Virus record (IMG/VR): IMGVR_UViG_3300025874_000005
Location: 64,001-128,000 of that record
Source: a virus
Length of the DNA stretch: 64,000 nt
Reading direction: 5' to 3' (one strand)
The notes beneath the pieces were generated by a model. That model saw nothing but the letters and a program-made list of their open reading frames with translations. It was not told the origin of the DNA and made no database searches. Shown here one piece after another: positions 4,468-57,889 of the stretch. The first letter of the stretch is position 1. The number at the start of each line of letters is the position of its first letter. Made by a program: the position numbers and the translations under genes.

Positions 4468-4491
4468 TATTTATAACAAAATAATAGAATT

Positions 4492-32172: not shown

Positions 32173-32196
32173 TATTTATAATAAAATATTCAATTT

Positions 32197-32994
32197 ATGA
32201 TTTCACTAATTAAATTATTAAAAGAAGCTATAGCAGAGCCAAAGGCCATTATATTAGCAGGAGCACCAGGAGCTGGTAAAGGATACATTTTAAGAGGTTT
32301 AGATTTAGGTGGTATAAAAATACTAAATGTAGATGATATTTATGTCCCCCTATTACAAAAAGCTAATGTAACATTAGATTTAAAAAATGCTACTCCTGAA
32401 GAAAGAAGTGAGCAAGCTAAACAAATGGCTGCTGCAAATAAACAATTTAAAGGAGATGTAGAAGCTACTATAGAAGGCAAAGAATCTTTTATTTTAGATG
32501 GAACAGGAGCTTCATATAATCAAACTGCTAAATTAAAAAATGAATTAGAAGAAGCAGGATACAAAGTATTTATGCTTTATGTTTATACTGATTTAGAACG
32601 CTCACTATCTCAAAACCAAGACAGATATGAAAAATCAGAAGGTAAAGATAGAAGTTTAGCACCTGCTATTGTAATGCGTACATGGAAAAGTGTAACAGAT
32701 AATTTACCTAAATATGCTGAATTATTTGGTAATAATTTTGTAGCTGTAGCCAATACATTAGATAATAGAATGCAAAATATAGATAAAATAATAAAAAAAT
32801 ATCTTACTCCATTTAAACCTGAAGGAACAAAACCAAAAACACCAAAAGAACAAGCTAAATCAGACGCTAGAAAGGCTAAAGATAAAGAAGAGATTCAAAT
32901 TATGCTAGATGATGATTTTGTATATGATGTAATTGAATATACAATGTCTAAAGAAGAAGCACAGATGCGAATAGGTAAATTCTTAAATTCATGA
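32197..32994 (+). CDS. zeta-toxin-like P-loop kinase
   Basis: GAPGAGKG Walker A, NVDD, ILDGTG, lid R...R; N-terminal MISLIKLLKE leader. Confidence 0.75.
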   Translation: MISLIKLLKEAIAEPKAIILAGAPGAGKGYILRGLDLGGIKILNVDDIYVPLLQKANVTLDLKNATPEERSEQAKQMAAANKQFKGDVEATIEGKESFILDGTGASYNQTAKLKNELEEAGYKVFMLYVYTDLERSLSQNQDRYEKSEGKDRSLAPAIVMRTWKSVTDNLPKYAELFGNNFVAVANTLDNRMQNIDKIIKKYLTPFKPEGTKPKTPKEQAKSDARKAKDKEEIQIMLDDDFVYDVIEYTMSKEEAQMRIGKFLNS

Positions 32995-34997
32995 GTAAGG
33001 TAATAGCAGCATATGGTGGTGGTTTTAAACCACCCACTAAAGGACATTTAGAAGTAGTTAAAAAAGCTTTAGAATCTCTTCCTGAAATAGATGAATTTAT
33101 TATTTATGTTGGGAGTAAGGAAAGAAATGGGGTAAGTCAAGCTGAAGCTATTTTAATTTGGGATATATTTAAAAAATATCTCCCTATGAAAGTCAGAATT
33201 GAACCTGCAAAATCACCAATTGGTGATATTGTTCGTTTAGGAAAAAATAACCCTGAGGATGAAGTTTATTTTATTATAGGAGGAAGAGAAGGAAGAGATG
33301 ATGATTTAGAAGATATTGAAAATAGAACTAAAAACATAGAATCCGCTTATCCTAATATGAAAGTAAAAGTACAATTTACACAAGATAAAGGTATGAGTGG
33401 AACTAATGCTAGAAAAGCAGCAAAAATGTCAACTGATGAATTATCACCATTTCTACCTGATGAGTTAGATGATAGTGAAAAAGAAGAAGTATTTAATATC
33501 TTAAGACCAGTAATTAAAGAAGAAATTACCAAACCCCAATTAGATTCAATTGAAAAATATGCTGATAGTTTATTTAATAAATTAGGAATTGATATTGAGT
33601 TTACAAAACATTTCTTAGATAGGGTAAATGATGAAAGAAATATTAAACCTATATCAGTACCAGAATTAGTAGGGATGTTTAAACGTTTACATAGAAAACA
33701 CGGTAAACCTTTATCCAAAATAGACGATGATTTTAATGCTGTTGTTAAGGATTTTAATAATAATATTAATATACCATTTGCTATAAATGTAACTGATGAT
33801 GATATTGAAATGTATGCCAAAACAGTAATGCGTAAAAAAGATTTCAAAACCTCAACTCCTGTTATTGCCCTTAATGAAAACGCTTCATATACTAAAGATA
33901 TTAATCTTATTGAAAAATTAGCTCAACTAACTCAACATATGTTAGATAAAGGCATGAACATAGAACCTTTACCTAGTTTAGAATTTGTTAATGGTGATAG
34001 TGAAAATGCACGCGAATTTCTTGGTAAGACAGCGTATTATGACCCAAACACACAAACTATAGTATTATATACTGAAGGTAGACATCCTAAAGATATAGCG
34101 CGTAGTTACACTCATGAAATGATTCACCACATTCAAAATTTAGAAGATAGATTAGGTAATATTACTACAACAAACACTCAAGAAGATGATGAGTTAAATG
34201 ATATTGAAGCAGAAGCTAATTTAAAAGGCACAATGACATTTAGAAATTGGACTGATAGTTTAAATGAGGTTGTTGTAGGTAACAAAATTGAATGTGATAA
34301 GTGTGGTTGGAGTTGGAAAATAGCAGATGGTGGAGATGATTTATTTATATGTCATAAATGTGGGAACAATAATAAGCCTATAAATGAAGTAAAACCTTAT
34401 AAACATAAACATGGTTTTGATGACAAATTAGGCAAAGATCCCTTTGGTTTAAACCAATTTGCTAGAGAAATAGCCGAAGGAGTTTTGATACCCGAAGAAG
34501 AGGTCGTATCTTCACCCCCTATGGAATATAAAATATACTCAGACATGGATGGTGTGTTAACAGATTTTGACAAATCATTCGAAAAATACTCAAAAGGAAT
34601 ACCACCTAGAGAGTATGAAAAGAAATTTGGTAAAGATGGTTTTTGGAAATTAATTGATGGTGAAGGTAAAGTTGGATTTTGGGTAGGAATGCCTTGGATG
34701 GAAGATGCTAAACAGTATTGGGATTATATTAAAGATTACGATGTAGAGTTATTATCTTCTCCATCTAGATCTGAAACATCAAGATTAGGTAAAAGATTAT
34801 GGGTTAGAAATAATATGCCGGGCATTAAATTAACTTTAGCACAAGCTTATAATAAGAAAAATTATGCTGAACCTAATCATATATTAATTGATGATAGAGA
34901 ATCAAATATAGAACAATGGAAAGAAGCAGGTGGAATAGGCATATTACACACATCAGCAGCTGACACTATTAACCAACTTAAAGCATTAGGATTATGA
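32991..34997 (+). CDS. multidomain protein: nucleotidyltransferase + unknown domain + zincin peptidase + Zn ribbon + HAD 5'-nucleotidase
   Basis: GGFKPPTKGH/SGT; FTKHFLDRVND; HEMIHH..EAEA; CDKC..CHKC; DMDGVLTDF..LIDDRESN. Confidence 0.8.
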   Translation: MSKVIAAYGGGFKPPTKGHLEVVKKALESLPEIDEFIIYVGSKERNGVSQAEAILIWDIFKKYLPMKVRIEPAKSPIGDIVRLGKNNPEDEVYFIIGGREGRDDDLEDIENRTKNIESAYPNMKVKVQFTQDKGMSGTNARKAAKMSTDELSPFLPDELDDSEKEEVFNILRPVIKEEITKPQLDSIEKYADSLFNKLGIDIEFTKHFLDRVNDERNIKPISVPELVGMFKRLHRKHGKPLSKIDDDFNAVVKDFNNNINIPFAINVTDDDIEMYAKTVMRKKDFKTSTPVIALNENASYTKDINLIEKLAQLTQHMLDKGMNIEPLPSLEFVNGDSENAREFLGKTAYYDPNTQTIVLYTEGRHPKDIARSYTHEMIHHIQNLEDRLGNITTTNTQEDDELNDIEAEANLKGTMTFRNWTDSLNEVVVGNKIECDKCGWSWKIADGGDDLFICHKCGNNNKPINEVKPYKHKHGFDDKLGKDPFGLNQFAREIAEGVLIPEEEVVSSPPMEYKIYSDMDGVLTDFDKSFEKYSKGIPPREYEKKFGKDGFWKLIDGEGKVGFWVGMPWMEDAKQYWDYIKDYDVELLSSPSRSETSRLGKRLWVRNNMPGIKLTLAQAYNKKNYAEPNHILIDDRESNIEQWKEAGGIGILHTSAADTINQLKALGL

Positions 34998-35206
34998 GTA
35001 AATTAAATACACTAGCTGGGGGATATAAGGGGGGATCACCAAGATTAAGAAGTAATAATACTCCAAAACCCTTTATTGGAGACCCACCAAAACAGGTAGA
35101 TGTAGAACAATTATCAAATTATCTTAAACAATTATATAGTGGGGGTAATTTATCAAAAGAAGGTGTACAAGTTATTATTAAAGAATTAAATAAATTAGTT
35201 TTATGA
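34994..35206 (+). CDS. hypothetical protein
   Basis: ATGA overlaps on both sides. Confidence 0.55.
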   Translation: MSKLNTLAGGYKGGSPRLRSNNTPKPFIGDPPKQVDVEQLSNYLKQLYSGGNLSKEGVQVIIKELNKLVL

Positions 35207-35778
35207 GTAAAGTACAAGGTCTAAATAAACAATTTACTGAAAGAGATGTAAATAGAATGCGTAACCTTATCCAAGGAAAACACGGTGAAAAAGTAGGTCA
35301 GAGTGTGGGTTATGCTAAACATGATAAAGATTATAAAGAAGGTGATGTTTGGGAAGTAGATGGTAGGATGTGGACTATTAAAGAAGGTATTAAACAAAAT
35401 ATTACCAAATTAGATAAAGCAAAAAAAGCACACATAATGCCTATTTTTTGCCCTAATTGTGGGTCTAAAATGCATACAGATTTAGATAAACCCTACTACA
35501 ATATACATAAAAAATGTTTTAATTGTGTTGTTGAGTTTGAACATCATTTAAGAGTAGCAGGTTTATATGAAGCTTATGAGTCTAAAATCATCAACTCAGA
35601 AATAGATAATTTTGTTAATGAATTTAAAGCTTATATAGAAGCTGAGTTAGTATTATCTAATAAAGGTTTTATTACAGAACAGGGCGATGTTGAAAGTTGG
35701 GTAGGGGCTCCTAATAAATCAAAAGTATTAGAAGGATTAAATAAAACTATCGAACATTTAAATAATCTTAAAAAGTAA
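35203..35778 (+). CDS. hypothetical zinc-ribbon protein
   Basis: EGDVWE..G..WTIKEGIKQ; CPNCG...CFNC. Confidence 0.7.
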   Translation: MSKVQGLNKQFTERDVNRMRNLIQGKHGEKVGQSVGYAKHDKDYKEGDVWEVDGRMWTIKEGIKQNITKLDKAKKAHIMPIFCPNCGSKMHTDLDKPYYNIHKKCFNCVVEFEHHLRVAGLYEAYESKIINSEIDNFVNEFKAYIEAELVLSNKGFITEQGDVESWVGAPNKSKVLEGLNKTIEHLNNLKK

Positions 35779-35809
35779 CATATTTTTATATATTTATAAC
35801 TAAAAATCA

Positions 35810-37357
35810 ATGGATAATTTTAATATCACTAAGTGGAATAGAAACCGCTATCTTAATGAAGGTCAAATAGACGAATATGGGGAATATAGATCTCGAGAAA
35901 TAGAATTAGGAAAAGAATTAGATTCTCAATTTAATGATTATAACCCTAACATTTCATTACAAATGTATAGTGGTGACAGACCAGATTCAGACCCATTAAA
36001 AGGCAAAGGCTTTGGTTCTATAACATTTAGTGTTAGAGAAGAACTTGATCCTAATGATTGGAATAAAGCATTAAAGTGGGTAGAATCTAAAGGATTTGAA
36101 ATAGAATCAGAATCTAATTGGTATGAAATGGAATATGATGGAGATAGAGCATGGTACCCAAAAATAAAATTTCAATTTAATGTAGCAGATTTTCCAATCA
36201 ACGAAGGGATGAGTAAAGCAGGCATCAAAAAACAAATCAAAGATGCAGAAGAAATATTAGATAGTGGTGAAGCTAATGGTGAACCTTTAACTTCTGAAAC
36301 AGAAATGTTAGTACAGAAAGAACTTAAAAGACTACTTTCACTATACAAATCAGTTAACGAAATGGATATAAATGACCCAGTACTCGTAAAAATAAGAGCT
36401 GCTAAAGATAGAACTGATAAAATACTATCCCAACCTAAATCAGATTTCGGTAAAGAATATGGTGATGCTGTTAAAAAAGCTCGTGGTGGTAATAATAATG
36501 ATACTAAACTTAGATTTCTTAAGAAAGAAAGAGATCAATTAATGCGTGATATGGAGCAAGAAGCTGAACCAGAAGGTGGACCAATTGCTGATGAATATGG
36601 TAGTAAACTAAACCGTATAGATAATGCAATTGCTAAACTATCAGGTAGAAAAGAAATGACTTATGACCAAGCAATAGCTGAAGGTAAAAAAATAGGAAAA
36701 AATTCATATAAAACTAGAACTGCTATAAACACAGCACCTGGAAAAACAGAAGATAAAGAAGTAATAATTGATAACATAAGTGATCTTGATAATGTTACTA
36801 TTAGATGGAGAGGAACTAACCATCATGGTAATAAAACACTTACAAATTTAAAATTTAAACAAGAATCTAAAGGTGATGATGATTTAATGGCAATATCAAA
36901 TGATGATAAATGGCTATTTATAGTAGATAGGGATGACGACACAGGGGAGATAGATTGGAATACTTTAATCGTAGATAGTAGAGAATTAGAACAAGACGAT
37001 GGTAGCTATGCCGTAGATTCTGAAGATAGAATAAATACTAAAGAATCAATAGATGAAAGTGCTTCAACAGAAGAAAAAAGAATTGCCTTACGTGCTATTA
37101 AAAGTATAGCTAAGTATAGAGGTGTTAGTGAAGATGAAGCAAAACGAGATCTTACTAGAGCAATTGAACAGTTAGGTAGTTTAAAAGAAGCAATTAAAGA
37201 TATTAAAGAAACTACTGAATTAGGAAAAAATCTAACTGAAGAACTTTGTGCTAAAGGTAAAGCATATAGAAAGAAAAGAATGGCAGCTGGTGAGAAATCA
37301 TCTGCTTACTTGAATGGTCGTGCTGTTAAAGTATGTAAAGGTCAAATGAAAGGGTAG
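35810..37357 (+). CDS. modular putative head-internal protein
   Basis: Segments delimited by LNE/INE/VNE/IAE/IDE/LTE; basic C-terminal module LCAKGK...SAYLNGRAVKVCKG. Confidence 0.65.
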   Translation: MDNFNITKWNRNRYLNEGQIDEYGEYRSREIELGKELDSQFNDYNPNISLQMYSGDRPDSDPLKGKGFGSITFSVREELDPNDWNKALKWVESKGFEIESESNWYEMEYDGDRAWYPKIKFQFNVADFPINEGMSKAGIKKQIKDAEEILDSGEANGEPLTSETEMLVQKELKRLLSLYKSVNEMDINDPVLVKIRAAKDRTDKILSQPKSDFGKEYGDAVKKARGGNNNDTKLRFLKKERDQLMRDMEQEAEPEGGPIADEYGSKLNRIDNAIAKLSGRKEMTYDQAIAEGKKIGKNSYKTRTAINTAPGKTEDKEVIIDNISDLDNVTIRWRGTNHHGNKTLTNLKFKQESKGDDDLMAISNDDKWLFIVDRDDDTGEIDWNTLIVDSRELEQDDGSYAVDSEDRINTKESIDESASTEEKRIALRAIKSIAKYRGVSEDEAKRDLTRAIEQLGSLKEAIKDIKETTELGKNLTEELCAKGKAYRKKRMAAGEKSSAYLNGRAVKVCKGQMKG

Positions 37358-37358
37358 T

Positions 37359-37895
37359 ATGAAAGATTTAAAAATAATACAAGAATTTTTTTCTAAACCT
37401 ATCTATGAAAATGAAATAGATAGTTTAGGTGATGCTTTAGCTGATGAAATAAAAGATACCTTAGAAGATAAAAAAGATGAATTAAAAGAAATAGTTGATC
37501 CTATAACAATTTTATCTACAGTATTAGCTAGCACAACATTAATCAACATTATAGCTAAATTCTCAGGTAAAATATTTAAAAAATATAATTTTGGTAAAGG
37601 TGAAGAAGCAGCTAAAAAAATCTATGATTTTACTCATAAATTAGAACAAGATTTTAAGGGACCCATTAAACGTGTAGTTTCATTATTTTCTAAAGATCCA
37701 AAAACAATAAAATTGGTAACTGATGGTTTATATGCTTTATTAATTTTAAGTTTAGGTGTTAAAGCCGGTAGTGGAGCAGTACAAAGTTTATCAAAAGGTA
37801 ATATAGCATCAGGAACCATTAGTGGTTTAAAGGCAGCTTTAAAAGGTAAAGATTTAACTACACTAATTAAAGATATAGCAGGAGCAGTAACATGA
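37359..37895 (+). CDS. putative head-internal protein with hydrophobic helices
   Basis: IQE/IYE/LKE sites near the N-terminus, then two hydrophobic/amphipathic segments. Confidence 0.55.
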   Translation: MKDLKIIQEFFSKPIYENEIDSLGDALADEIKDTLEDKKDELKEIVDPITILSTVLASTTLINIIAKFSGKIFKKYNFGKGEEAAKKIYDFTHKLEQDFKGPIKRVVSLFSKDPKTIKLVTDGLYALLILSLGVKAGSGAVQSLSKGNIASGTISGLKAALKGKDLTTLIKDIAGAVT

Positions 37896-38182
37896 TAACA
37901 GAAGAAAGAGTATATGAAATAGTTAAAGAATCCTTACGTGATTGGTTTAAAAAAGAAAATTGGGTAAGAATTAACACATCAGGTAATATTGCAGGTGATT
38001 GTGGTACTATGAAAAAAGGAAAGGCCACTACCAGATGTTTACCTAAGAAAAAAGCTCAATCTTTGTCAAAATCAGAAAGAAAATCTACAGTTGCTAAGAA
38101 AGTTAGGGGTAGTAAAAAAGGAAAACAATTTGTAAAAAATACAAAGTCCGCAAAATATCGAAAAGGAACGTATGAGAAATAA
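37892..38182 (+). CDS. small basic protein
   Basis: VKE followed by a K/R-rich domain (LRDWFKKENWV...CG...RCLP). Confidence 0.6.
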   Translation: MITEERVYEIVKESLRDWFKKENWVRINTSGNIAGDCGTMKKGKATTRCLPKKKAQSLSKSERKSTVAKKVRGSKKGKQFVKNTKSAKYRKGTYEK

Positions 38183-38230
38183 TTTTTACATATTTATAAT
38201 AAAATTAATCAACAGAAAAATACAAATATA

Positions 38231-38893
38231 ATGAAAAAATCGGAATTAAAAGAAATCATCAAAAGTCAGTTTTTAGCTGAAGCTGATGACTCTAAAAAAG
38301 GAAACAGCGAAGAACAAAAACGAATGGAAGGTGCCATTCGTGATGATAGAGATCACATTAAAAATCTTGAAAAAGACATTAAAGATAACGAAGAAAAATT
38401 AGCTAAATTAAAGAAAGACTTTAAAAAAGATGTTAATGAAGCTGAGGATGTTGATGTTGAAGATAATGAAGATATTGATGTTGAAGATAATGAAGATATT
38501 GATGTAGATATTGAAGATGATGTTAACATTGATGATGAATCATCCAAATCAGAAATTGAAGTTGATTCAGAATTAGCAGGTGAAGATTCTGATGTAGCAG
38601 CTATATTAGGTCTTTTAACTAAGGCACAAGAAGAAGCTAAAGGTTTAGGAGATGAAAAACTATTAGACCAAATAGGAAATACAATTACTTATTATACTAG
38701 AGCACACGTTGTAGCTACTAATGAAGAACAAGGAATGGATCCTGAAAGATTCGTAGGTTCGGGTGGTGATGAAGTTGATTCTGATAGTATAGTTAATGTA
38801 ACAAAAGACAACCCAGCTGAAGATGCTGAGATTGGATTTGCATTAGATGAGTCAATTCAAAGATTTGCTAAATTAGCAGGATTAGAAAAATAA
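38231..38893 (+). CDS. acidic prohead-core-like protein
   Basis: MKKSELKEIIK leader; C-terminal RFAKLAGL matches the scaffold's RFKKLAGI. Confidence 0.65.
   Translation: MKKSELKEIIKSQFLAEADDSKKGNSEEQKRMEGAIRDDRDHIKNLEKDIKDNEEKLAKLKKDFKKDVNEAEDVDVEDNEDIDVEDNEDIDVDIEDDVNIDDESSKSEIEVDSELAGEDSDVAAILGLLTKAQEEAKGLGDEKLLDQIGNTITYYTRAHVVATNEEQGMDPERFVGSGGDEVDSDSIVNVTKDNPAEDAEIGFALDESIQRFAKLAGLEK
38453..38505 (+). repeat. 24-bp tandem repeat (DVEDNEDI x2)
   Basis: GATGTTGAAGATAATGAAGATATT twice, plus a partial copy. Confidence 0.8.
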
Positions 38894-38928
38894 ATAAAAA
38901 CAGTTATTAACAAATAAAATTTATAAAA

Positions 38929-39084
38929 ATGGACACAAAAGAATTATTAGAAGGAATTAAAGAACAAGTATTATTAATTGAAGCAGAATTAGAAAAAACA
39001 AGTGCTGCCGCAAAGGGTAGATGTAGATCTGCTGCCAATAAAATTAAAAACTTATCTGCTGATTTCAAAAGAAACCATAAATAG
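38929..39084 (+). CDS. histone H1-like (Hc1-like) protein
   Basis: MDTKELLEGIKEQVLLIEAELEKTSAAAKGRCRSAANKIKNLSADFKRNHK*, matching the Bacteroidetes Hc1-like pattern (K..AA..R.R..A..I..L...F). Not in the track. Confidence 0.6.
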   Translation: MDTKELLEGIKEQVLLIEAELEKTSAAAKGRCRSAANKIKNLSADFKRNHK

Positions 39085-39086
39085 GA

Positions 39087-41231
39087 ATGAACGAGCGTAA
39101 ACTGTCAAAAGCAGAACTCAAAAAGAGGGAAGATATTATCATGAATATGAAAGGTAACAAACGTGACCTTGTTAAAAAATATGGTAAAGATGCTGAGGCA
39201 GTTATGTATGGACGTGCAACTAATATGGCTAAAAAACAAACAAAAGAAATGAGAGATCCTAATTTAACAGAGTTGATTAAAGATGCATTAAAAAACCCAT
39301 CAAAAGCAGATTTAAATAAGGATGGAAAGCTATCAGATTATGAAAAAACTAGGGGGGCTGCTATTGAAAAAAACATAAAAGAATTAGACTCATCAATTCC
39401 GTTGGGAAAAGATTTTACTTATGATTATGAAGATATAGGTCAATTTTATTTAGAAGGTTTTGGTAGACCACACTCATTAAATAATAGTGAATTAGAAGCA
39501 TTAGGTAAGCAAATTGTTGGTAGACTATATGGTGGTAACATTAGTAAAGCCTATGATGATTTAAAAAATAAAGGTAAAATGAATGAAGTAGAATTACCTA
39601 CATCAATTATCCAGAAATTTGCTAATGAAATTAAGGACCCCCAAGGATTTGCAAAAGCAATGCTTGGGATTTTTAATTCTATACAAGATAAAGAACAAAA
39701 AGATTATTCTAAAAATCAAAAATTTGGAAGAGTACTTAGTTATTTAAAAGATATAGCCGATAGTGAAGCTGAAGAAATAAATGAAGCACCAGGAACAACA
39801 TTAGATTTATCTCAAGATGATATGGATAAACTTCATCAAAGTGGTAAATTAGAACTTGATGGTCATAAACTTTTATATAAAGTAAAAGAAGATATTGATT
39901 TAGGTCATGAAGATAATGAACCTGGAATGCTTAAAGCAGAGCTTTACCATATTGGTAGTTATGCTATGGAATTATATAAAATGATGGATGATTTAGAAGG
40001 TATGGGAGAAATTGATTTCCCTGCTTGGTGGCAATCAAAAATCACAACAGCTAAAAATAATATATCAGGAGCTAAACATTATCTTGAATTTGAACTTAAA
40101 GAACCTAAAATTGATGCCGTAGTTGATGTAGCTACAGACGTAGTAGATGAAGAAATAGGCCAACTAGGCACAGATGGTGATACAGGATTTCAAGCGTCAT
40201 TATACACACCAAACGAATTAGGTGATGCATCAGTAGGAAGAGAATATGCATCAGGAGCATTTGAGGAAAGTAAAAAACCAATAGAAGAAGCAATGAATAT
40301 GAATAAATGGCGCCGCGCCTACAACGGAAAAGCATTTGCTAAAAAAACAGTATATTTAACAGATTATAATAATAATAAAAAGAGATATACTATTTATTTT
40401 AAATATAAGGAAACACCATCTAAAGATGTTGTATCACTTAAAGAATCTCATTATGGTAATCATGAAGGTAGTGGAATGGCATTTGCAATGTCTAATTTAC
40501 AAAACAAACCAGTATATCAATTTACATCTGATGATAAATTTGAGTGGGACAATGAAGAAGAATTTGATGCTTGGGTAGCAGAAGGACCTAAAGGTTTAGA
40601 AAGTTTACTAAGCTTTTTCTTAGGTGGTAGAAATGTTGATGATGCTATTAAATCTTGGTTTGACACAGGTGTTACTGATAAAAGTAAATTAAAAATAGGA
40701 CCTGCAGAATATTATCCAGATGCAGCCGTAAATGAATCTACTTCTAAACATAGTTCAATAGCAGAAAAATTAGCTAAAGAGTTAAAAGAAGGTTTACCTA
40801 AAGGATTTTGGGATAAAAAAATCGATGCTAAAGATGAAGACCAAGATGGTAAAATAGATGAAGACTTAAAAGGTCTAATGGCACAGGGAGAAAAAATAGC
40901 TGCATTTGCTAATAAGCAAAGTGGGTATGAAGGGGGTGTATCTTCACCTGTAAGAGGTGTTTTAGCAGCTATGGCAGCAGCGGGTGCACCTGATTTTGAT
41001 GGTGATGATGAAATGGTAAGTTATTATACTAGAAAATTAACTAAAGCTATTGAAACTCAAAAAGGTAAAAAATATATGAGTGGTTTTTCTATTGATGAAT
41101 CATACGATACTTTAGTTAATAAAATTAAAAAACAAGGTAAATCTAGTAAGGCAGCTAAAGCAATTGCAGGTGCAGTAGCATCATATAAAGCAAAAGGCGG
41201 AGGTAAAGGCCCAACAGCAAAACAAAAATAA
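39087..41231 (+). CDS. modular putative head-internal protein
   Basis: Many [ILMV]-x-E junctions; EF-hand-like DLNKDGKLSDYE; FPAWWQSKI module; basic C-terminus. Confidence 0.65.
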   Translation: MNERKLSKAELKKREDIIMNMKGNKRDLVKKYGKDAEAVMYGRATNMAKKQTKEMRDPNLTELIKDALKNPSKADLNKDGKLSDYEKTRGAAIEKNIKELDSSIPLGKDFTYDYEDIGQFYLEGFGRPHSLNNSELEALGKQIVGRLYGGNISKAYDDLKNKGKMNEVELPTSIIQKFANEIKDPQGFAKAMLGIFNSIQDKEQKDYSKNQKFGRVLSYLKDIADSEAEEINEAPGTTLDLSQDDMDKLHQSGKLELDGHKLLYKVKEDIDLGHEDNEPGMLKAELYHIGSYAMELYKMMDDLEGMGEIDFPAWWQSKITTAKNNISGAKHYLEFELKEPKIDAVVDVATDVVDEEIGQLGTDGDTGFQASLYTPNELGDASVGREYASGAFEESKKPIEEAMNMNKWRRAYNGKAFAKKTVYLTDYNNNKKRYTIYFKYKETPSKDVVSLKESHYGNHEGSGMAFAMSNLQNKPVYQFTSDDKFEWDNEEEFDAWVAEGPKGLESLLSFFLGGRNVDDAIKSWFDTGVTDKSKLKIGPAEYYPDAAVNESTSKHSSIAEKLAKELKEGLPKGFWDKKIDAKDEDQDGKIDEDLKGLMAQGEKIAAFANKQSGYEGGVSSPVRGVLAAMAAAGAPDFDGDDEMVSYYTRKLTKAIETQKGKKYMSGFSIDESYDTLVNKIKKQGKSSKAAKAIAGAVASYKAKGGGKGPTAKQK

Positions 41232-41232
41232 C

Positions 41233-41673
41233 ATGACATCAGCAGAATTAAGGGAAAAGATAAGATTACTTGTCCCAACTGTTGTTGGTAACAAGAAACA
41301 AGCAGAAGCAGCTGCTGTGGAATATGATGAATTAACAAAATTCCCAGAGTTAAAAGCTATTATTGTTGACTTGTTAACTCATGAATTTGATTCTTTTTTA
41401 TCATCAATTGATTGGGTTGCCCCAAAACCATCAACTTTTAGAATAAATTTAAAAAATGATCAAGCTTTTTATTTAACATACTCAAGAACAAGTTGGGTAG
41501 CTCAAGTAGAAGGTAAAAGATATTACTTATTAAATCTACCAGAAGAAGAAAGAGCAACAGAAGCTATTGCACGTATTTTAAGATATGGTGTAAAGGCTGA
41601 CACTGATGCTGTTGAAGGTGGTGGAGAAGATGTAGATGTGGAGGTAGATGATAACGTTGATATAGACATATAA
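41233..41673 (+). CDS. hypothetical protein
   Basis: Track ORF; TAATG-coupled to the next gene. Confidence 0.65.
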   Translation: MTSAELREKIRLLVPTVVGNKKQAEAAAVEYDELTKFPELKAIIVDLLTHEFDSFLSSIDWVAPKPSTFRINLKNDQAFYLTYSRTSWVAQVEGKRYYLLNLPEEERATEAIARILRYGVKADTDAVEGGGEDVDVEVDDNVDIDI

Positions 41674-42710
41674 TGGATAATATAACAAAATATTTACATA
41701 AAATAGCATATAAATTTCCTAAAGGATATCCTGATATGGGTGATCCTAAAGATAAAGATATGTTATTTGAATTAATAAAAACTGTAATAGAAGCAGAAGA
41801 AGAAGTAGAAATTGATGTCAAAACATCACAACCTTCTGGGGGGTCTGAAACATATAATGATACTATTAGATATGCTATATATGGTAAAGATTACAAAGAT
41901 AAACCAATTCCAAAACCTAAGAGTAAATACCCTTATAAAAATTCTACATTTAGTATAGCAGTTAGCTCTGAAGATAAAGAATTATTTACCAAACTATACC
42001 CTGTTAAACCCCCAAAAGTAGGAAAAGAAATAGGTAGTGCTGGTTCTTTAGGTGTGGGGAATGGAGAAATTGCATTATATTGGTTATATCATTTTTCAAA
42101 TAGTGCTAAAGTAACAGAAGGTAGAGAAAAAGATGACCCGGATTTATACTTTAACAATCAGGGAGTAGAGGTTAAATCTTGGAGTACTGATAAAGGTTTA
42201 CACGGTTTAGGAAGATTTGGAGCTGATAAAGAAAATTTATCATTACTTTCACTTATATTTGGGTTTAGTGCTCTAGTAAGTGTTTTTGATGGTGAAGGTG
42301 AATTGCCAAAAACAGTAAATCCAACTAATTTTAGAGGATTTCAACTTACGGCTGCTATGGAAAAAGTAAAAGAGTTTAAAAGCCTTTTAAATAAAAATAG
42401 TGATTTAGTAGATGAATATCCTTTATTTAAAAATATTAAATCTAATGTAGATAGAGTATACAATACATTAAATTTAGAAGATTCAGATAGCCCTCAGGAT
42501 ATGGGGAGAAAGATGGCAATACAACTTTTAAAACCAAAATTAGATAGAAAACCAGGAGATGGTAACCATTTAGCAAATGTAAAAGACAATGGGGATATTA
42601 AATTCTTTCAAATTAATTTTGATGAATTAAAAAATAGTGATGAATTAATGAAAGACTTTGAAGTAAAACAGAGTGCAATTAGAATTAATTTTGATAAAAT
42701 TTGGGGTTAA
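41673..42710 (+). CDS. putative PD-(D/E)XK restriction-endonuclease-fold nuclease
   Basis: GVGNGE...DPDL....GVEVKS motif after an N-terminal YKFPKGYPD leader. Confidence 0.55.
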   Translation: MDNITKYLHKIAYKFPKGYPDMGDPKDKDMLFELIKTVIEAEEEVEIDVKTSQPSGGSETYNDTIRYAIYGKDYKDKPIPKPKSKYPYKNSTFSIAVSSEDKELFTKLYPVKPPKVGKEIGSAGSLGVGNGEIALYWLYHFSNSAKVTEGREKDDPDLYFNNQGVEVKSWSTDKGLHGLGRFGADKENLSLLSLIFGFSALVSVFDGEGELPKTVNPTNFRGFQLTAAMEKVKEFKSLLNKNSDLVDEYPLFKNIKSNVDRVYNTLNLEDSDSPQDMGRKMAIQLLKPKLDRKPGDGNHLANVKDNGDIKFFQINFDELKNSDELMKDFEVKQSAIRINFDKIWG

Positions 42711-42728
42711 AAAATAAAATAAAACAAT

Positions 42729-44081
42729 ATGTGTAACTGCGGATGTAATACTTGTGATACTAATAAATCAACGTTAATGTTAAATGAAAATTTAGCACCG
42801 CGTGCTATATTGTCTGAGGGTTTAAAACACCATATAGACAACGATAAACCGCTTACTGAACATTTATACCGTGCGGGTTCACGTGCTTATTTTGATTTAT
42901 TTGCAGAAGCAAGATCTTTATATAGTAGAGGCATTTTAAAATTTACTAATGAAGATGATTTAGCTTTACTTACAGAAACTAATTTAGGTCATTTTGGTAT
43001 GTTTGAAGGTAAAAAAGTGCCTTTAGATTTTCCTATTGAATTAAATGAGCAAATGGACATATATGATGACATTGCAAATATGGAATTTGGAATGGATTAT
43101 GACCAATTAGGTGATAATGAAAAAGAATGGGTTCGTGATGAAATTGATAATATGGAAATGAATGAAGTTACCAGTTATAGTGGTTTTAATAGAAACCCAG
43201 AGGACCCAGATTCCGAACCATTTCAACCAACAGGGTCAGTATCTGAATTTAGAGAAGATTTAAGAGCATTATTTGGTAAATTTAAGGGTGATTTAAAAAA
43301 TCCTGAGTTTATAAAAGGAGTAGCTCAAATAATGGTTAATTGGAAATCACTTTTAAGAAGTCAATTAAATGAATCAGATTCTAAATATCCAAATTTTGAT
43401 TTAAATAAAAATATAAAATACAAAGATACATCTATTTCAAGTGGGATGTGGAGATACACAGGTCAAGAACAAGGTGGAGCAGGTGTTTATAGAAATTTAA
43501 ATAATGGTCAAATATTAGCTTTTGATAGAAGTGATTTTGATATATTTAAAAATAATCTTAGCAGTCATTTTGATATAAATGAAGGAACATTTAATTCTCC
43601 TAACCATATTGCAATTTTTGATGGTCCTGATGGCATGGTAGATGTTTATAAGACACCAGAGGGTTATTATTTCCAAACTGATAATTATGATGGAGAAGCT
43701 TCTAATGCTAAAGAAGCAGCTAAATGGTTAAAAGATAATGGTTTTGTTAGATTACAAGCTGGTAGTTTAGATGAAGCTAAAAAGAAAAAAGCTAAGAAAA
43801 AAGATAATAGACCAATAGGAAAACCAATGCGTTCATCTTCAGGTGGAAAAGCTTACAAAGTATACGTTAAGGATCCTAAAACTAAAAAGATTAAAACCGT
43901 TAGATTTGGATCTGGTGGTTTAAGAGCAAAAATAAATGACTCTAAGGCCCGCGCAGCATTTGCAAAAAGACACAAATGTTCAACTAAAAAAGACAGAACT
44001 AAAGCAGGTTATTGGAGTTGTAGATTACCTAGATATGCAAAATTACTCGGACTCAAATCAAGCTTTTCTGGATTCTGGTAA
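42729..44081 (+). CDS. modular putative head-internal protein
   Basis: MCNCGCNTC N-terminus; LNE/MNE/INE/LDE junctions; Glu-free basic C-terminal domain (KVYVKD...VRFG...RHKC...YWSC). Confidence 0.65.
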   Translation: MCNCGCNTCDTNKSTLMLNENLAPRAILSEGLKHHIDNDKPLTEHLYRAGSRAYFDLFAEARSLYSRGILKFTNEDDLALLTETNLGHFGMFEGKKVPLDFPIELNEQMDIYDDIANMEFGMDYDQLGDNEKEWVRDEIDNMEMNEVTSYSGFNRNPEDPDSEPFQPTGSVSEFREDLRALFGKFKGDLKNPEFIKGVAQIMVNWKSLLRSQLNESDSKYPNFDLNKNIKYKDTSISSGMWRYTGQEQGGAGVYRNLNNGQILAFDRSDFDIFKNNLSSHFDINEGTFNSPNHIAIFDGPDGMVDVYKTPEGYYFQTDNYDGEASNAKEAAKWLKDNGFVRLQAGSLDEAKKKKAKKKDNRPIGKPMRSSSGGKAYKVYVKDPKTKKIKTVRFGSGGLRAKINDSKARAAFAKRHKCSTKKDRTKAGYWSCRLPRYAKLLGLKSSFSGFW

Positions 44082-44346
44082 ACCATATATTGACTTAGAA
44101 GTTACAGATAATTATATTCTAAGACAATTTAATGAATCAATTGATCCTATAGAATTACTTTGGCATCGTGATGATGAAGACAGAGTAGTTGAAATTATAG
44201 GAGAAACTGATTGGAGTTTACAACTTGATAATTCCCTTCCATCTTCCCTTCAGGAACGTATATTTATACCTCGACATCAGTGGCATAGAGTAATCAAAGG
44301 CACTGGAAGTTTAAAACTTAAAATATATAAAAATGAACAAATGTGA
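44035..44346 (+). CDS. cupin-like protein
   Basis: WHRDDEDR...FIPRHQWHRVIKG cupin motifs. Start uncertain; ATG at 44035 is in frame with track ORF 43936. Confidence 0.6.
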   Translation: MQNYSDSNQAFLDSGKPYIDLEVTDNYILRQFNESIDPIELLWHRDDEDRVVEIIGETDWSLQLDNSLPSSLQERIFIPRHQWHRVIKGTGSLKLKIYKNEQM

Positions 44347-44401
44347 TTGTCAAATATGTAAGTGCGGTACTTCATGTAGTTGTACTTGTTGTAATTGTTA
44401 A
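44333..44401 (+). CDS. metallothionein-like microprotein (22 aa, 9 Cys)
   Basis: MNKCDCQICKCGTSCSCTCCNC*; fills the gap between two genes; A-rich start context. Confidence 0.6.
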   Translation: MNKCDCQICKCGTSCSCTCCNC

Positions 44402-44406
44402 ATAAA

Positions 44407-44682
44407 ATGGAAAATTTCGATTATAAAAAATATTTAGCTGAAGGTCGCTTATACGAAAACGTATTAGCTCAAAAACTTAGAGACGAAGCAAAACACCCAG
44501 ACTCAAAAGTGGGTGCTGCTATATTTAACAAGTATGCTGAAAAAGTAGAAAAAGCTAAAAAAGAAGATTATGTAAAACTTATAAAAGCTATGGAAAGCGA
44601 ATTAATATCTAAACACCCTGATACATTCAGTGGTGAAGATGACATTCCAGGAAGCTTTTTACGTGAGGACAAAATAAATTAA
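44407..44682 (+). CDS. hypothetical protein with shared leader
   Basis: MENFDYKKYLAEGRL (start probably 44407 rather than 44395). Confidence 0.65.
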   Translation: MENFDYKKYLAEGRLYENVLAQKLRDEAKHPDSKVGAAIFNKYAEKVEKAKKEDYVKLIKAMESELISKHPDTFSGEDDIPGSFLREDKIN

Positions 44683-44687
44683 AATAA

Positions 44688-45170
44688 ATGAATAACTTCG
44701 ATTTAACAAAATATTTAGCTGAAGGTAAGCTACTAAATGAATTCGTAGGTAAAGCCTTAGAAGATAGAAATCAACCTCTTTATGATAAATTAGTAGCAGG
44801 ATCTGGCAAATCAGATACTATGGAAGGTGAAATGTTAAGAGCTATTAATAGAATTGTTTATCGTTATTATAATGATGGAGATGAATACCATACAGGATAT
44901 GGTACTGAAACAGCAGGACCAGCTCATTCATTTTTGGTTAATGCTAACACAGGTGTAAGATCAGCAATGAATATGATATTTAGAAATGGAACTAATTATG
45001 AAGAAACTATTGAGGATGCTTTAGAGCATATTTTATCTCATATTGAAGCTAAACAAGGTAAATACACCCCTAATACAGTAGGTGATATGTTTGATTATGA
45101 AGCTGAATTTGAAGACGATACATATGAAGAAGAAGATTATGATGATTATGATGATGATTATGATTATTAA
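44688..45170 (+). CDS. hypothetical protein with shared leader
   Basis: MNNFDLTKYLAEGKLLNE; GEMLRAINRIVYRYYNDG; acidic tail. Confidence 0.65.
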   Translation: MNNFDLTKYLAEGKLLNEFVGKALEDRNQPLYDKLVAGSGKSDTMEGEMLRAINRIVYRYYNDGDEYHTGYGTETAGPAHSFLVNANTGVRSAMNMIFRNGTNYEETIEDALEHILSHIEAKQGKYTPNTVGDMFDYEAEFEDDTYEEEDYDDYDDDYDY

Positions 45171-49757: not shown

Positions 49758-50126
49758 ATGAAGAAATCAGAATTAAAAGCATCAATTAAAGAAGAAATCC
49801 TTGAACTATTAGAAGCAGAATCTGCAGATGAAATTAGTGCTAAAGCCGATGCACAGGCTGACCTAAATAAGGAATTAGAAAAAACTCAAGACCTTATGAA
49901 AGAAGAAGATGAAGATGATGAGGATGTAATGGATAAGAAAGCTATAAAAGGAGCTAAAAAAGGAGACTCAGTATCTAAATTAGCATCAAAACTTCAACAA
50001 ACATCTGCTGAAATGAAAAAAGTAGTAAAAAAGTGGAAAAATGCTGAAGGTTCTGAAAAACAAAAACTTACGGATCGTCTAAGAGAATTAACTAAAATTA
50101 AAAAAGAACTTGAAGGTCTTCTTTAA
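49758..50126 (+). CDS. coiled-coil putative head-core protein
   Basis: MKKSELKASIKEEILE leader; late motif upstream. Confidence 0.6.
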   Translation: MKKSELKASIKEEILELLEAESADEISAKADAQADLNKELEKTQDLMKEEDEDDEDVMDKKAIKGAKKGDSVSKLASKLQQTSAEMKKVVKKWKNAEGSEKQKLTDRLRELTKIKKELEGLL

Positions 50127-54220: not shown

Positions 54221-55081
54221 TTGATGTATATAAAACATTCAAAATTCAGGAATACAGGCATTTTATTCGAGGTAATAGTAAGAAAAATTACATCAGAAAC
54301 CCTGTCAGGAAAAGATTCACCAGCTATTAACATTCTAAAATCCCACTTTGTAAATACTGAGTTAGGGAAAGAATATAAATTGTATGAAACTATATTTAAA
54401 TCTAAAAATCTAGATAGTACTAGAGCTAGTACAGTTTTAGATACCATATTAGAATCTTCAAAAAGACTTAATAGAACTAGGATTAGAAAAGAAAAATACA
54501 ATCTTATAAAAGAACTTAAAGCTCACTATAATGTTGAAGATTTATTTAAAACAAAACTTAATGATTATAAAGCACAGGCTTCATTGTATACTTTATTAGA
54601 AACATACAACACAGAAAAATTAATAGACCCAAATCAAATTATAGATAATAAAGTTACACTATTAGAATATTTAACATCTAAAGATATAAATAGAGATAAT
54701 GTTAAAGAAGATGTAATTGAAGAGTTTAAATCTCAAGATAAAGATATTCGTACATTAACATATTATGTATTACTAGAAAAATTTAATGATAAATACTCAA
54801 CATTAAACCCTAGACAAAAGAATATTCTTAAAGAATTTATTGAGTCTGTAGATAACACACCATCATTAAAAGAATTTTATAATAAAGAAGTTCTTTTTAT
54901 TAAAGAATCAATTAAATCTCAAATTGCTAAAACAGAAAGTAAAGTAATTAAGATTAAATTAAATGAAGTTAATTCTTTGATTAGTGAGTTAAATAAAAAA
55001 ACAACCATTAAAAGTGATCACTTAGTTGATTTGTTACAATACCATTCATTAATAGAAGAATTAACAAAATCAAATGGATAG
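54221..55081 (+). CDS. conserved head-module hypothetical protein
   Basis: KHSKFRNTGILFE start; between portal and protease; late motif upstream. Confidence 0.7.
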   Translation: MMYIKHSKFRNTGILFEVIVRKITSETLSGKDSPAINILKSHFVNTELGKEYKLYETIFKSKNLDSTRASTVLDTILESSKRLNRTRIRKEKYNLIKELKAHYNVEDLFKTKLNDYKAQASLYTLLETYNTEKLIDPNQIIDNKVTLLEYLTSKDINRDNVKEDVIEEFKSQDKDIRTLTYYVLLEKFNDKYSTLNPRQKNILKEFIESVDNTPSLKEFYNKEVLFIKESIKSQIAKTESKVIKIKLNEVNSLISELNKKTTIKSDHLVDLLQYHSLIEELTKSNG

Positions 55082-56111
55082 CATAGTAGAAAAAATAATT
55101 GGCTTGATAAAAGAAGTTAAAAGAAAAGATATTGATCCAAAATTAATAACTTGGATTGAAGATAGATATGGTCCTTGGGATGATAGAGATTTTATATCTG
55201 ATGATGGTGATACTTATTTTAAAACAGATGCTGATTATGAATCTGAAGGAGGTGGAATTTCACATAAAATAGTTAAATTGCCTTCATTTTCAGTATTAAT
55301 CAAACAATTAAAAGCAACTAGGGATGCTGCTAATGAATTAGTTAAAGGTGAATCTGTAAGAGATGATGAGATATTAAGAGATATATCTAATGAATTAAAA
55401 AGAGAATTTAATAGATTTAGAACTCATTTAAGAAAAGAATACCCAGCATTTTATGCTCAATTAAAATCTCAACTTACTAAAGAAGAATTAGAGGAAATGT
55501 CTACAACTGGCGGTGGAGCAGGTGCTGCTTCATTTACCCCGGGTACAGGAATGCAATATGCAACCCCATATGCTTTTAAAAAAGCTAAAAAAGCAGTGCA
55601 AAAAGAAGCATTACAACTAGTACATGTTTACGATAAAGATGGTAAAATGTATGGTACTGGATCAGTTGAAAAGGTAGAAGGGGATAAAACGACAGTTCGT
55701 TTTGATGGTAGTACAGTTAAAATATTTCCTAGCAATAGAGTAAAACTAGTAAAAGAGGATATTGGAGCAACATTAGGCCCAGGACCTAAAGCAGGTCCAG
55801 AAGGAGTAAAAGATAATGCATACGTAAAACAATTTAAATATAGTTTAGTACCTAAGAAAATAAAAGGATCTGGTTTAGAAGTTAAGCAGTTATTTGAAGC
55901 TGATGATGTAAAATCATTCCAACAAGAAAGAATAGCTGCTTTTGATGTAATTGAACAACAACTTAATGATATTTATAAGATGTTAAGCAATGCTAAAAAT
56001 GAAACAGGGGATTATTACACAGAAAACCCTACATCATTTTCAGTTATAAAACCAACAGATCTAGTATTAGATTATATAAAAGATATAAAAGACTTATTAA
56101 AAGGAGAATAA
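55074..56111 (+). CDS. modular putative head-internal protein
   Basis: IKE/LEE/VKE/LFE junctions; EMSTTGG...ATPYAF module; small SH3-like module. Confidence 0.6.
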   Translation: MDSIVEKIIGLIKEVKRKDIDPKLITWIEDRYGPWDDRDFISDDGDTYFKTDADYESEGGGISHKIVKLPSFSVLIKQLKATRDAANELVKGESVRDDEILRDISNELKREFNRFRTHLRKEYPAFYAQLKSQLTKEELEEMSTTGGGAGAASFTPGTGMQYATPYAFKKAKKAVQKEALQLVHVYDKDGKMYGTGSVEKVEGDKTTVRFDGSTVKIFPSNRVKLVKEDIGATLGPGPKAGPEGVKDNAYVKQFKYSLVPKKIKGSGLEVKQLFEADDVKSFQQERIAAFDVIEQQLNDIYKMLSNAKNETGDYYTENPTSFSVIKPTDLVLDYIKDIKDLLKGE

Positions 56112-57286: not shown

Positions 57287-57889
57287 ATGAGTCAATTACT
57301 AATAGAAACACACGTATTTAAACCTAAGGGAGTCATTTTAAATGAATCACGCTCAAAACGAGGTTTACCCTTAGTTGAAGGAATATTAGCTACTGCTGAA
57401 GTAAAAAACGGTAATGGTAGGTATTATTCTAAAGAATTGTGGGATAGAGAAATTGACAAATATAGAGTATTAGTTGATGAAAATAGAGCAATGGGAGAAT
57501 TAGACCACCCAGAATCCTCAGTAATAAATTTACAGAATGTATCACATAATATTTCTGAAATGTGGTGGGATGGAGATAATGTAATGGGTAAAATAGAAAT
57601 TTTACCTACACCAAATGGTAATATACTCAAAGCATTAGTTGAAAGTGGGATTACAGTAGGTGTGTCTTCAAGAGGAATGGGTTCATTAGAACAAAAAGGT
57701 GAATTAATGGAAGTTCAAGATGACTTTGAATTATTATGTTGGGATTTTGTCTCAACACCATCTAACCCAGACTCATTTATGCATTTAGTAAGAGAAAATA
57801 AAGAATTTAAATCACAAGATAAATATAAAAACGTAAATAATATATTAGGTGAAATATTATGTTCATACGGACATTGCCCTATATTATAG
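57287..57889 (+). CDS. prohead maturation protease (gp21-like)
   Basis: NGNGRYY, GELDHP, VSH, GVSSRGMGS, DFVSTPS. Confidence 0.95.
   Translation: MSQLLIETHVFKPKGVILNESRSKRGLPLVEGILATAEVKNGNGRYYSKELWDREIDKYRVLVDENRAMGELDHPESSVINLQNVSHNISEMWWDGDNVMGKIEILPTPNGNILKALVESGITVGVSSRGMGSLEQKGELMEVQDDFELLCWDFVSTPSNPDSFMHLVRENKEFKSQDKYKNVNNILGEILCSYGHCPIL

Follow-up and report, generated by a model that had tools for sequence, protein, structure and literature searches.

Modular proteins of a marine T4-like phage have prohead protease motifs at their domain joints and may be processed head cargo

Why should a phage gene join several unrelated enzyme domains in one polypeptide, with a motif of the kind recognised by a phage head protease at the joints between them? 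The question is raised by the open reading frame (ORF) 32991-34997, which lies in a 64,000-nucleotide stretch of viral DNA (the window; bases 64001-128000 of a single 164-kb contig, IMG/VR record IMGVR_UViG_3300025874_000005) from a distant T4-like marine myovirus. The ORF codes for 668 amino acids, and this one chain combines several unrelated catalytic domains (a nucleotidyltransferase, a predicted zincin-like peptidase and a HAD nucleotidase) with unknown modules, each of which also exists as a separate protein family. In phage T4 the prohead protease gp21 cuts after L/I-X-E (PMC9026906), and the initial annotation of the window, which found [IL]-x-E at the domain boundaries of this ORF, proposed that it and several of its neighbours are polyproteins that are packed into proheads and cut there into separate effectors. 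From the sequence comparisons described below, we give about even chances to the proposal that the phage makes its cargo as chains of modules, which enter proheads, are cut by a gp21 homologue and are partly delivered with the DNA. For the window's own chain, which has no leader sequence, we rate the same cargo reading somewhat below even.

All five of the boundary sites named in the initial annotation are present and fall in predicted linkers. Their positions had been given by the first residue of the motif; numbered by the final Glu, the motifs end at E177 (IKE), E296 (LNE), E426 (LNE), E466 (INE) and E496 (IAE), and four more [IL]-x-E sites lie at residues 32, 35, 308 and 502. The features of the chain are as follows.

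32991 to 33521, + strand: module 1 (residues 1-177, ending IKE), a HIGH-motif nucleotidyltransferase, PPAT/NaMNAT-like, identified by Foldseek and Pfam (PF01467).
33522 to 33878, + strand: module 2 (residues 178-296, ending LNE), with invariant H, R, K, T and R, identified by phrog_14518 and alignment.
33879 to 34268, + strand: module 3 (residues 297-426, ending LNE), a predicted small zincin-like HExxH metallopeptidase, from its model and structural matches.
34269 to 34388, + strand: module 4 (residues 427-466, ending INE with the Glu invariant), a four-Cys zinc ribbon, from alignment.
34389 to 34478, + strand: a short conserved linker module (residues 467-496, ending IAE), the family's main point of insertion and fission, from relatives.
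34479 to 34994, + strand: module 6 (residues 497-668), a HAD 5'(3')-deoxyribonucleotidase (phrog_2643, E = 1e-24; 3bwv).

The fold of module 1 is most like that of PPAT and of the NaMN adenylyltransferases (1gn8, E = 9e-7, TM 0.73 by Foldseek). Module 2 corresponds end to end to a stand-alone phage family of 125 residues (phrog_14518, positions 3-121). A PBECR-type RNase domain was considered for module 2, which has no Pfam match; a profile search against PDB sequences was unconvincing, and its model has a confidence of about 50. Module 3 resembles a small zincin-like peptidase in its structural model: the model of the module alone consists of a helix at the N terminus, three strands and two further helices, one with HExxH and the other bearing the Glu, and its best structural matches are SPRTN (Z = 7.2, root mean square deviation 3.2 over 105 residues), PprI (7.2), Wss1 (6.7) and the ArdC peptidase domain (6.6, deviation 3.0 over 98 residues). 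These values of 6.6-7.2 are modest, below the level that excludes a merely common arrangement, and the module gave no Pfam match, no convincing hit in the PDB-sequence profile search and no match at E <= 0.001 when its model was searched with Foldseek. In the ESM Atlas, modules 2 and 3 matched unnamed viral clusters only. Module 3 is the most conserved part of the polyprotein family, present in nearly all homologues, with H375, E376, H379 and the downstream Glu invariant. When isolated modules of 32991 and of two neighbouring modular proteins, 35810 and 42729, were searched against Pfam, none came above threshold at E-values up to 1. The enzymes listed in the initial annotation are recovered as a nucleotidyltransferase, a predicted zincin-like peptidase, a HAD nucleotidase and, in the gene just upstream, a zeta-like kinase; the 'nuclease' on that list was not confirmed.

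The evidence that carries the proposal comes from comparing this chain with its relatives. By scanning IMG/VR we found 292 relatives of the polyprotein and kept 78 loci (individual loci are numbered with the prefix L), comprising 73 distinct proteins of 300 to 1325 residues. The initial annotation had suggested looking in related phages for gain and loss of domains at the motif sites, and this is what the 73 relatives show: modules are inserted, lost, swapped and split off there. BLAST breakpoints against these homologues cluster at query residues 171-181, 292-297, 422-427 and 494-512, with insertions between them of entire blocks, 84 to 785 residues long. Module 2 is missing, deleted or replaced by another module in many relatives, and the nucleotidase is split off as a gene of its own in Flavobacterium phage vB_FspM_immuto (immuto), L057, L075 and L079. 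Inserted modules bear the motif at both ends, and nearly all joints read hydrophobic-x-Glu and then N, G, E, A, D or K, whichever modules meet. Together with their separate phage families, these breakpoints show that the modules are real and occur independently. We also observed that a very basic cassette recurs in the polyprotein inserts (L019, L020, L028, L030, L064 and L077); it starts with D-P-K-K-G-T-G-K-K-P and ends with a P-F-G-S-G-Y-like stretch before the joint.

The breakpoints coincide with the motif far more closely than random positions do. In all-against-all comparisons, alignment ends peak on the Glu itself, where 8.3% of right-hand breakpoints fall compared to 1.3% of random positions. 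After removal of junction windows more than 60% identical to one another, 68 were left, and [IL]-x-E occurs within 6 residues in 37 of them (null expectation 9.8 +/- 2.9; the highest of 2000 draws was 21) and within 3 residues in 29 (5.6 expected), which is the enrichment at domain boundaries that the initial annotation had proposed as a test. At the joints, position P3 is L (58%), I (17%), V (14%) or M (11%), P2 is N in 44%, and P1' is N in 28% and G in 19%. E296 is invariant and E177 nearly so among 22 sequences, and among 17 sequences the L and E of the site at 424-426, as well as E466, are invariant.

An AlphaFold model of the 32991 chain, built on 22 homologues, gave a further positional measure. 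Segments with a per-residue confidence (pLDDT) below 50 are residues 174-188, 276-303, 408-432, 439-488 and 490-511, plus a few short loops, and six of the nine [IL]-x-E sites are within these segments, which make up 25% of the residues (binomial P = 0.010). Glu residues as a whole show no such bias (15 of 58 are in the segments).

A protease that could cut these joints is encoded further along the window, in a group of head genes whose order is portal, three unknown genes, protease, acidic scaffold and capsid; the T4 order is the same, with core genes between portal and protease. The non-portal members of the group are as follows.

54221 to 57278, + strand: the three genes that separate portal from protease, corresponding in position to T4 genes 67/68; two of them, 54224 and 56112, are candidate prohead-core proteins.
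57287 to 57889, + strand: prohead core serine protease, T4 gp21 homologue (Peptidase_S77), from Pfam and 5JBL.
58080 to 59237, + strand: acidic scaffold-like protein, with 16 [IL]-x-E sites compared to 8.1 expected (p = 0.002).
59284 to 60924, + strand: major capsid protein, gp23-like, with three conserved sites in its N-terminal ~60 residues.

ORF 57287 matches the Peptidase_S77 family (PF03420) at 106 bits, compared to a cut-off of 27 (E = 2e-30), as the initial annotation's assignment of a gp21 homologue leads one to expect. Aligned with the T4 gp21 structure (PDB 5JBL, E = 1.5e-15), it has a His within L-D-H-P, a Ser within V-S-S-R-G and an Asp within W-D-F-V, each facing a residue of the T4 catalytic triad. 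Judged by these alignments, the protease is a genuine member of the T4 gp21 type and its triad is intact. The capsid protein is 60% identical to its counterpart in immuto and approximately 27% identical to gp23 of T4-like Aeromonas and Salmonella phages, and the gene order from primase to PhoH is also the same as in immuto.

Sites of the same type occur in the head proteins. The first 60 residues of the capsid protein contain LLE before S at residue 9, LLE before G at 35 and ILE before N at 51, all conserved among 75 distinct relatives and all just upstream of where the alignment to T4-type gp23 starts. The protease has an N-terminal leader ending L-I-E, as well as LNE at residue 20, so the N-terminal sites that had been reported in these two proteins are both there. 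Compared to composition-preserving shuffles, [IL]-x-E is enriched in the protease (7 sites, 3.4 expected) and two- to threefold in 54224 (15 sites, 5.4 expected) and 56112 (12, 5.6 expected), and shows no enrichment in 55074 (4, 3.6 expected); the head-core gene group as a whole has 54 sites compared to 25.8 expected. The capsid propeptide sites and the enrichment in the head core would fit, indirectly, cleavage after L/I-x-E by the ORF 57287 protease. A separate similarity links two of these genes: residues 130-163 of 55074 (55461-55562) are 47% identical over 34 residues (E = 1e-5) to residues 50-83 of the capsid protein (59431-59532), a segment that spans the presumed maturation site and includes a Gly-rich F-T-P-G-T-G motif. 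This stretch of 55074 may imitate the capsid N-arm or be a remnant of one.

The neighbouring genes that belong to the proposed cargo are listed here.

32197 to 32994, + strand: zeta-toxin-like P-loop kinase (Pfam PF06414, E = 5e-17).
35810 to 37357, + strand: modular protein of 515 residues with a leader (A, see below) ending Y-L-N-E before G; relatives break near residues 132, 185, 291 and 412.
37359 to 37895, + strand: protein of 178 residues with leader B ending I-Y-E, from leader comparison.
38231 to 38893, + strand: very acidic protein of 220 residues with leader C ending F-L-A-E before A, from leader comparison.
39087 to 41231, + strand: modular protein of 714 residues; junctions in relatives coincide with [LIV]-x-E in the junction test.
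42729 to 44081, + strand: modular protein of 450 residues with a Cys-rich 20-residue leader ending L-N-E before N and four [IL]-[NA]-E sites, from counts and relatives.
44407 to 45170, + strand: two small genes of 91 and 160 residues, both with leader A ending Y-L-A-E before G, from leader comparison.
49758 to 50126, + strand: acidic/basic protein of 122 residues with leader C, behind a promoter-like motif, from leader comparison.

The kinase scores 62 bits with PF06414 (cut-off 22.3) and has the loop G-A-P-G-A-G-K-G. The modular proteins other than 32991 have no family match in Pfam or PHROGs.

Comparison of these sequences points to a feature that the initial annotation did not describe: short N-terminal leaders ending in [LI]-x-E that are common to unrelated proteins. 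Leader A, with the consensus M-x-x-F-D-L-K-K-Y-L-A-E-G, is on 77 proteins in the fetched loci, and their bodies belong to at least 28 families without detectable similarity. There are five copies of it in the genome of the window's phage (on 35810, 44407, 44688 and two genes approximately 6 kb before the window), and because the five differ in codons the conservation is at the protein level. Leader B (I-Q-E-F-F type) heads 37359, and leader C (M-K-K-S-E-L...) heads 38231 and 49758; in all, leaders were found on 32197, 35810, 37359, 38231, 42729, 44407, 44688 and 49758. They can be exchanged between bodies–for example, the kinase has a 10-residue leader ending L-L-K-E immediately before its P-loop strand, and this is swapped for leader A at the same point in L056, L031 and L011, while bodies of the 37359 family bear leader A in other phages. 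About two-thirds of the polyprotein orthologues have a leader of 15-19 residues ending [LI]-x-E, and three of the four stand-alone nucleotidase genes that we checked (in immuto, L057 and L075) have an L-L-x-E leader of their own. In immuto, a stand-alone gene containing module 2 has leader C, and a 75-residue gene with leader A directly follows the protease gene. Gene content around the leaders is hypervariable, with matches among the 78 loci dropping from 77 for the kinase to 3 for 44688 as modules are gained and lost.

The copy of the chain in ORF 32991 starts straight with the strand of the nucleotidyltransferase and has no leader. We looked for an upstream start that would supply one, and a stop codon four codons upstream excludes a longer reading frame; we also considered a frameshift that would fuse the ORF to the kinase, and saw no slippery heptamer at the ATGA overlap of the two genes.

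The initial annotation also claimed that the same punctuation runs through 35810, 39087, 42729, 55074, 56112, the scaffold and the protease. By the junction test, this was significant for the 39087 family (22 of 80 windows, 7.9 expected) and weaker for the 35810 family (16 of 46 windows within six residues, 8.1 expected). By count it extends to 56112, the scaffold and the protease, as given above, and to 42729, which has 8 [IL]-x-E sites (3.1 expected) and 4 of the narrower form [IL]-[NA]-E (0.44 expected); by count it fails for 55074. Close relatives of 42729 show clean module losses at residues 148, 215 and 283, beside MNE, LNE and INE.

Three observations on gene architecture stand apart from these tests. 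In 42729 and some 30 relatives, the start of the protein is a conserved Cys-rich stretch, M-C-x-C-G-C-N-x-C, ending in the L-N-E motif (42729-42788 in the window), possibly a leader that binds metal. Pelagiphages, Roseobacter podoviruses and Methylophilales phages have the basic C-terminal module of 42729 (43776-44078) as a small protein on its own. In the family of 41673-42710 the first ~40 residues are near-identical across phages (K-F-P-K-G-Y-P-D motif) and are followed by unrelated C-terminal bodies of 324-527 residues (L007, L013, L016, L019, L024, L038 and others), a second type of protein with a constant head and a variable tail.

Cultured phages give a view of similar loci elsewhere. 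Pelagiphage HTVC008M (L160, 104000-114000) has a syntenic kinase, a 596-residue cytidyltransferase chain and a nucleotidase, and several genes of the locus have a short N-terminal stretch ending hydrophobic-x-Glu. Its nucleotidyltransferase is 40-46% identical to cyanophage enzymes. A cytidylyltransferase and a kinase were found by mass spectrometry in virions of the T4-like cyanophage S-CREM2, whose authors point out that enzymes of this sort frequently turn up in the virions of cyanophages (PMC10665884). These virion enzymes lend the cargo reading indirect experimental support, by analogy. The S-PM2 cytidyltransferase was considered and set aside; its architecture is different and it has no obvious leader. 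Our literature search found no virion proteomics of immuto.

The mechanism that would best account for these observations is an enlarged version of the T4 internal-protein system, made up of the genes in 32197-45170, the gene 49758 and the genes between portal and capsid. The leaders would be counterparts of the T4 capsid targeting sequence, directing the proteins to the scaffolding core of the prohead. There the gp21 homologue, active only inside the prohead, would remove the leaders and cut the chains into single modules. Once released, the modules would stay in the head beside the DNA, and some of them at least would enter the host at infection. The conserved joints would double as recombination points at which cargo cassettes are exchanged. 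A chain without a leader, such as the one in the window, would need another way in, for example by binding a partner that bears one. As for what the cargo does, the most plausible, though speculative, use is to provide early enzymes that handle nucleotides and nicotinamide adenine dinucleotide (NAD), and a peptidase, before phage genes are expressed; a role against host defences, as in the initial annotation, is speculation.

A number of findings weigh against this proposal. The 668-residue polyprotein of the window and its closest clade lack a leader. By number, the motif is not over-represented in the chains: 32991 has 9 [IL]-x-E sites compared to 9.0 in shuffles, 35810 has 8 (7.2 expected) and 39087 has 10 (7.4 expected), 55074 is equally close to chance, and the payload gene group (60 sites, 51.0 expected) does not exceed the remaining proteome in enrichment (499, 435.7 expected). 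Because these counts are at the level of chance, frequency alone cannot carry the claim, and the signal is one of position and not of number. Since the phages that supplied the junction windows are related, these windows are independent only in part, and a crude junction test of the 42729 family was not significant. The payload genes adjoin the primase and exonuclease genes, the nucleotidyltransferase and nucleotidase are ordinary cytoplasmic enzyme types, and podoviruses lacking an S77 protease also have the C-terminal module of 42729. The predicted zincin within the chain, with its motif intact, would be a second possible means of cutting it. The link to the cyanophage virion enzymes is distant, as the HTVC008M and window nucleotidyltransferases are only 24% identical over 99 residues, and the S-CREM2 authors allow for carry-over of abundant proteins (PMC10665884). 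In GenBank phage searches with 39087, 42729, the kinase and the nucleotidyltransferase, no homologue was annotated as a virion protein. The original packaging idea is thus partly supported, by the protease, the modules and their set of domains, the conserved joints of L/I-x-E followed by N or G, and the leaders, similar to the T4 targeting sequence, on neighbouring genes.

Several of these points would be explained if the proteins were simply multidomain enzymes that stay uncut in the cytoplasm, with the L-N-E-N/G joints serving as flexible linkers and recombination homology and the leaders being N-terminal helices with another role. We consider this unlikely, though it is the strongest of the alternatives. 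It agrees with the chance number of motifs in 32991, the neighbouring replication genes and the usual place of such enzymes in phage nucleotide metabolism, and a repeated linker sequence flanking inserted modules is what recombination joints predict. If the joints were linkers only, however, there would be no reason for P3 to stay hydrophobic and the Glu invariant whichever unrelated modules meet, nor is Glu in general concentrated in the linkers. The same tripeptide also ends the shared leaders and marks the capsid propeptide, and the phage encodes a protease of that specificity.

Another alternative, which we think quite improbable, takes the chain to be a self-processing polyvalent protein. 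The module 3 zincin would cut the joints, in the cytoplasm or after delivery, and one gene would yield several enzymes whether packaged or not. The conservation of module 3 and of its invariant HExxH and Glu residues speaks for this, as do the zincin core of its model, which resembles SPRTN, Wss1, PprI and the ArdC peptidase domain, and the lack of a head-loading leader on the window's copy; Iyer et al. propose just this role for the peptidases of polyvalent proteins (PMC5512222). Self-cutting does not, however, account for the same joints and leaders in the 35810, 39087 and 42729 families and the small leader A genes, all of them free of the peptidase, and it leaves the leaders kept on stand-alone modules unexplained. 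The motif is the published gp21 specificity, and it is also present in the capsid propeptide and head-core proteins, which are substrates of the protease in T4. That the boundary sites are accidents of an AT-rich, Glu/Leu/Ile/Asn-rich proteome would suit the count in 32991, but pure chance is excluded by the positional tests (37 of 68 junctions, the peak at offset 0 and the six linker sites) and sits badly with conservation of the motif across divergent homologues, so we regard it as extremely improbable.

Delivery of several effectors in the virion is an established idea, both from T4 Alt and the internal proteins and from polyvalent proteins (PMC5512222), and the system described here is the T4 internal-protein system merged with the polyvalent-protein idea, with T4-type leaders and protease sites on modular chains. 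In T4, 10-residue leaders load diverse internal proteins (PMC9026906, PMC3012670), and the internal proteins of T-even phages are highly diverse, with the targeting sequence alone conserved (PMC3012670). The window resembles the T4 system of IPI, IPII, IPIII and Alt (PMC9026906, PMC3012670) in its gp21-family protease and in short leaders ending L/I-x-E on unrelated, hypervariable proteins. It is also alike in having the motif in the capsid propeptide, scaffold and core proteins, and in the order of the head genes, and Alt, an enzyme carried as cargo, is a parallel to the window's enzymes. It differs in that T4 cargo proteins are single units, whereas the window has several chains of 3-6 modules with the motif at every joint and shuffling there; in having several leader families where T4 has one; in the location of its cargo genes, 10-25 kb from the head genes and next to replication genes; and in that its main chain has no leader and the system is known from sequence alone.

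Polyvalent proteins (Iyer, Burroughs, Anand, de Souza and Aravind 2017, PMC5512222) are proteins of phages, plasmids and conjugative elements that contain many effector domains around a zincin peptidase hub. The proposal for them is that they accompany the DNA and that this peptidase cuts them, and their repertoire includes zeta-like kinases. Unrelated effector-type domains in one polypeptide, a recurrent small peptidase predicted to be zincin-like, a zeta-toxin-like kinase and cassette-like recombination are found in the window too, and in both cases DNA-linked delivery and proteolytic release of domains have been proposed. Polyvalent proteins are, however, thought to ride on MuF or portal fusions, and no ORF in 32197-45170 matched a MuF or portal domain in Pfam or PHROGs. 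The window's joints match the specificity of the prohead protease, loading would be by T4-type leaders, and the domains are nucleotide-metabolic (HIGH nucleotidyltransferase, HAD nucleotidase) where polyvalent proteins have ART, methylase and RNase domains.

Two other systems are more distant. Giant phages cut many head proteins after Glu, mostly to remove propeptides (PMC10052503), and the ejection and inner-body proteins of phiKZ, 201phi2-1 and SPN3US (PMC10052503, PMC9026906) share with our proposal a gp21-like protease, cuts after the Glu of a three-residue motif, sometimes several per protein, and ejection into the host. Their motif is A/S/G-x-E instead of [IL]-x-E, the N-terminal propeptides removed are mostly lost from the head, one chain does not yield separate enzymes, and there is no description of modules being shuffled at the sites. 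The polyproteins that RNA viruses and retroviruses make are similar in that one product contains several enzymes and sites for a virus-encoded protease, which in retroviruses acts during particle maturation, but they are unrelated to the window in sequence, protease class and biology. In our literature search we found no such polyprotein strategy described for tailed phages, and neither capsid-targeting leaders nor protease-jointed polyproteins described for marine T4-like phages.

A promoter-like motif precedes some of the genes discussed here.

32173 to 32182, + strand: promoter-like motif ATATTTATAA, 16 nt upstream of the kinase gene, from a motif search.

Its core, TATTTATA, of which ATATTTATAA is the extended form, occurs 41 times on the + strand of the genome, and 26 of these copies are 7-37 nt upstream of a start codon. 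The initial annotation placed most of the candidate cargo genes in units behind a late motif, and copies do lie at this distance upstream of 32197, 35810, 38231 and 45207, as well as 49758, the portal gene 52300 and 54224. Many tail genes are also preceded by it, and sharing the motif with portal and tail genes speaks for the cargo reading. ATATTTATAA is found mostly before structural genes (examples in the window are at 4468, 11024, 14284, 27236, 52282 and 63458), but also before six genes in the early half of the genome. It resembles the T4 late promoter TATAAATA without being identical to it, and is likely to be a late promoter. In the tail/baseplate region, a gene of 114 residues behind this motif (14299-14643) begins with a leader-C-like helix that has I-K-E and V-K-E sites.

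If proteins of this kind are packed and cut as we propose, the T4 internal-protein system would extend well beyond coliphages, as a general delivery device with a much richer cargo in the phages that abound in the oceans. As a tentative extension, which we think possible without expecting it to hold, the head-protease site may be a universal joint in marine T4-like phages of Bacteroidota, SAR11 and other hosts: any module bearing the joint could recombine into a chain or behind a leader, be packed, be released as an active enzyme and be injected. The result would be a rapidly evolving, plug-and-play means of delivering finished enzymes (here for nucleotide/NAD handling, with a kinase and a peptidase), which would be active ahead of phage gene expression and might act, for example, against defences that deplete nucleotides or NAD. 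Provided that the chains are packed and cut, a simple grammar of leader, module and joint would make virion cargo predictable from sequence alone, and would explain the cytidylyltransferases and kinases in virion proteomes. It would also point to a large pool of candidate proteins for early host takeover or counter-defence, and nature would have supplied rules by which foreign proteins could be designed for packing into phage heads. Because the related Flavobacterium phage immuto is in culture, the idea can be tested directly.

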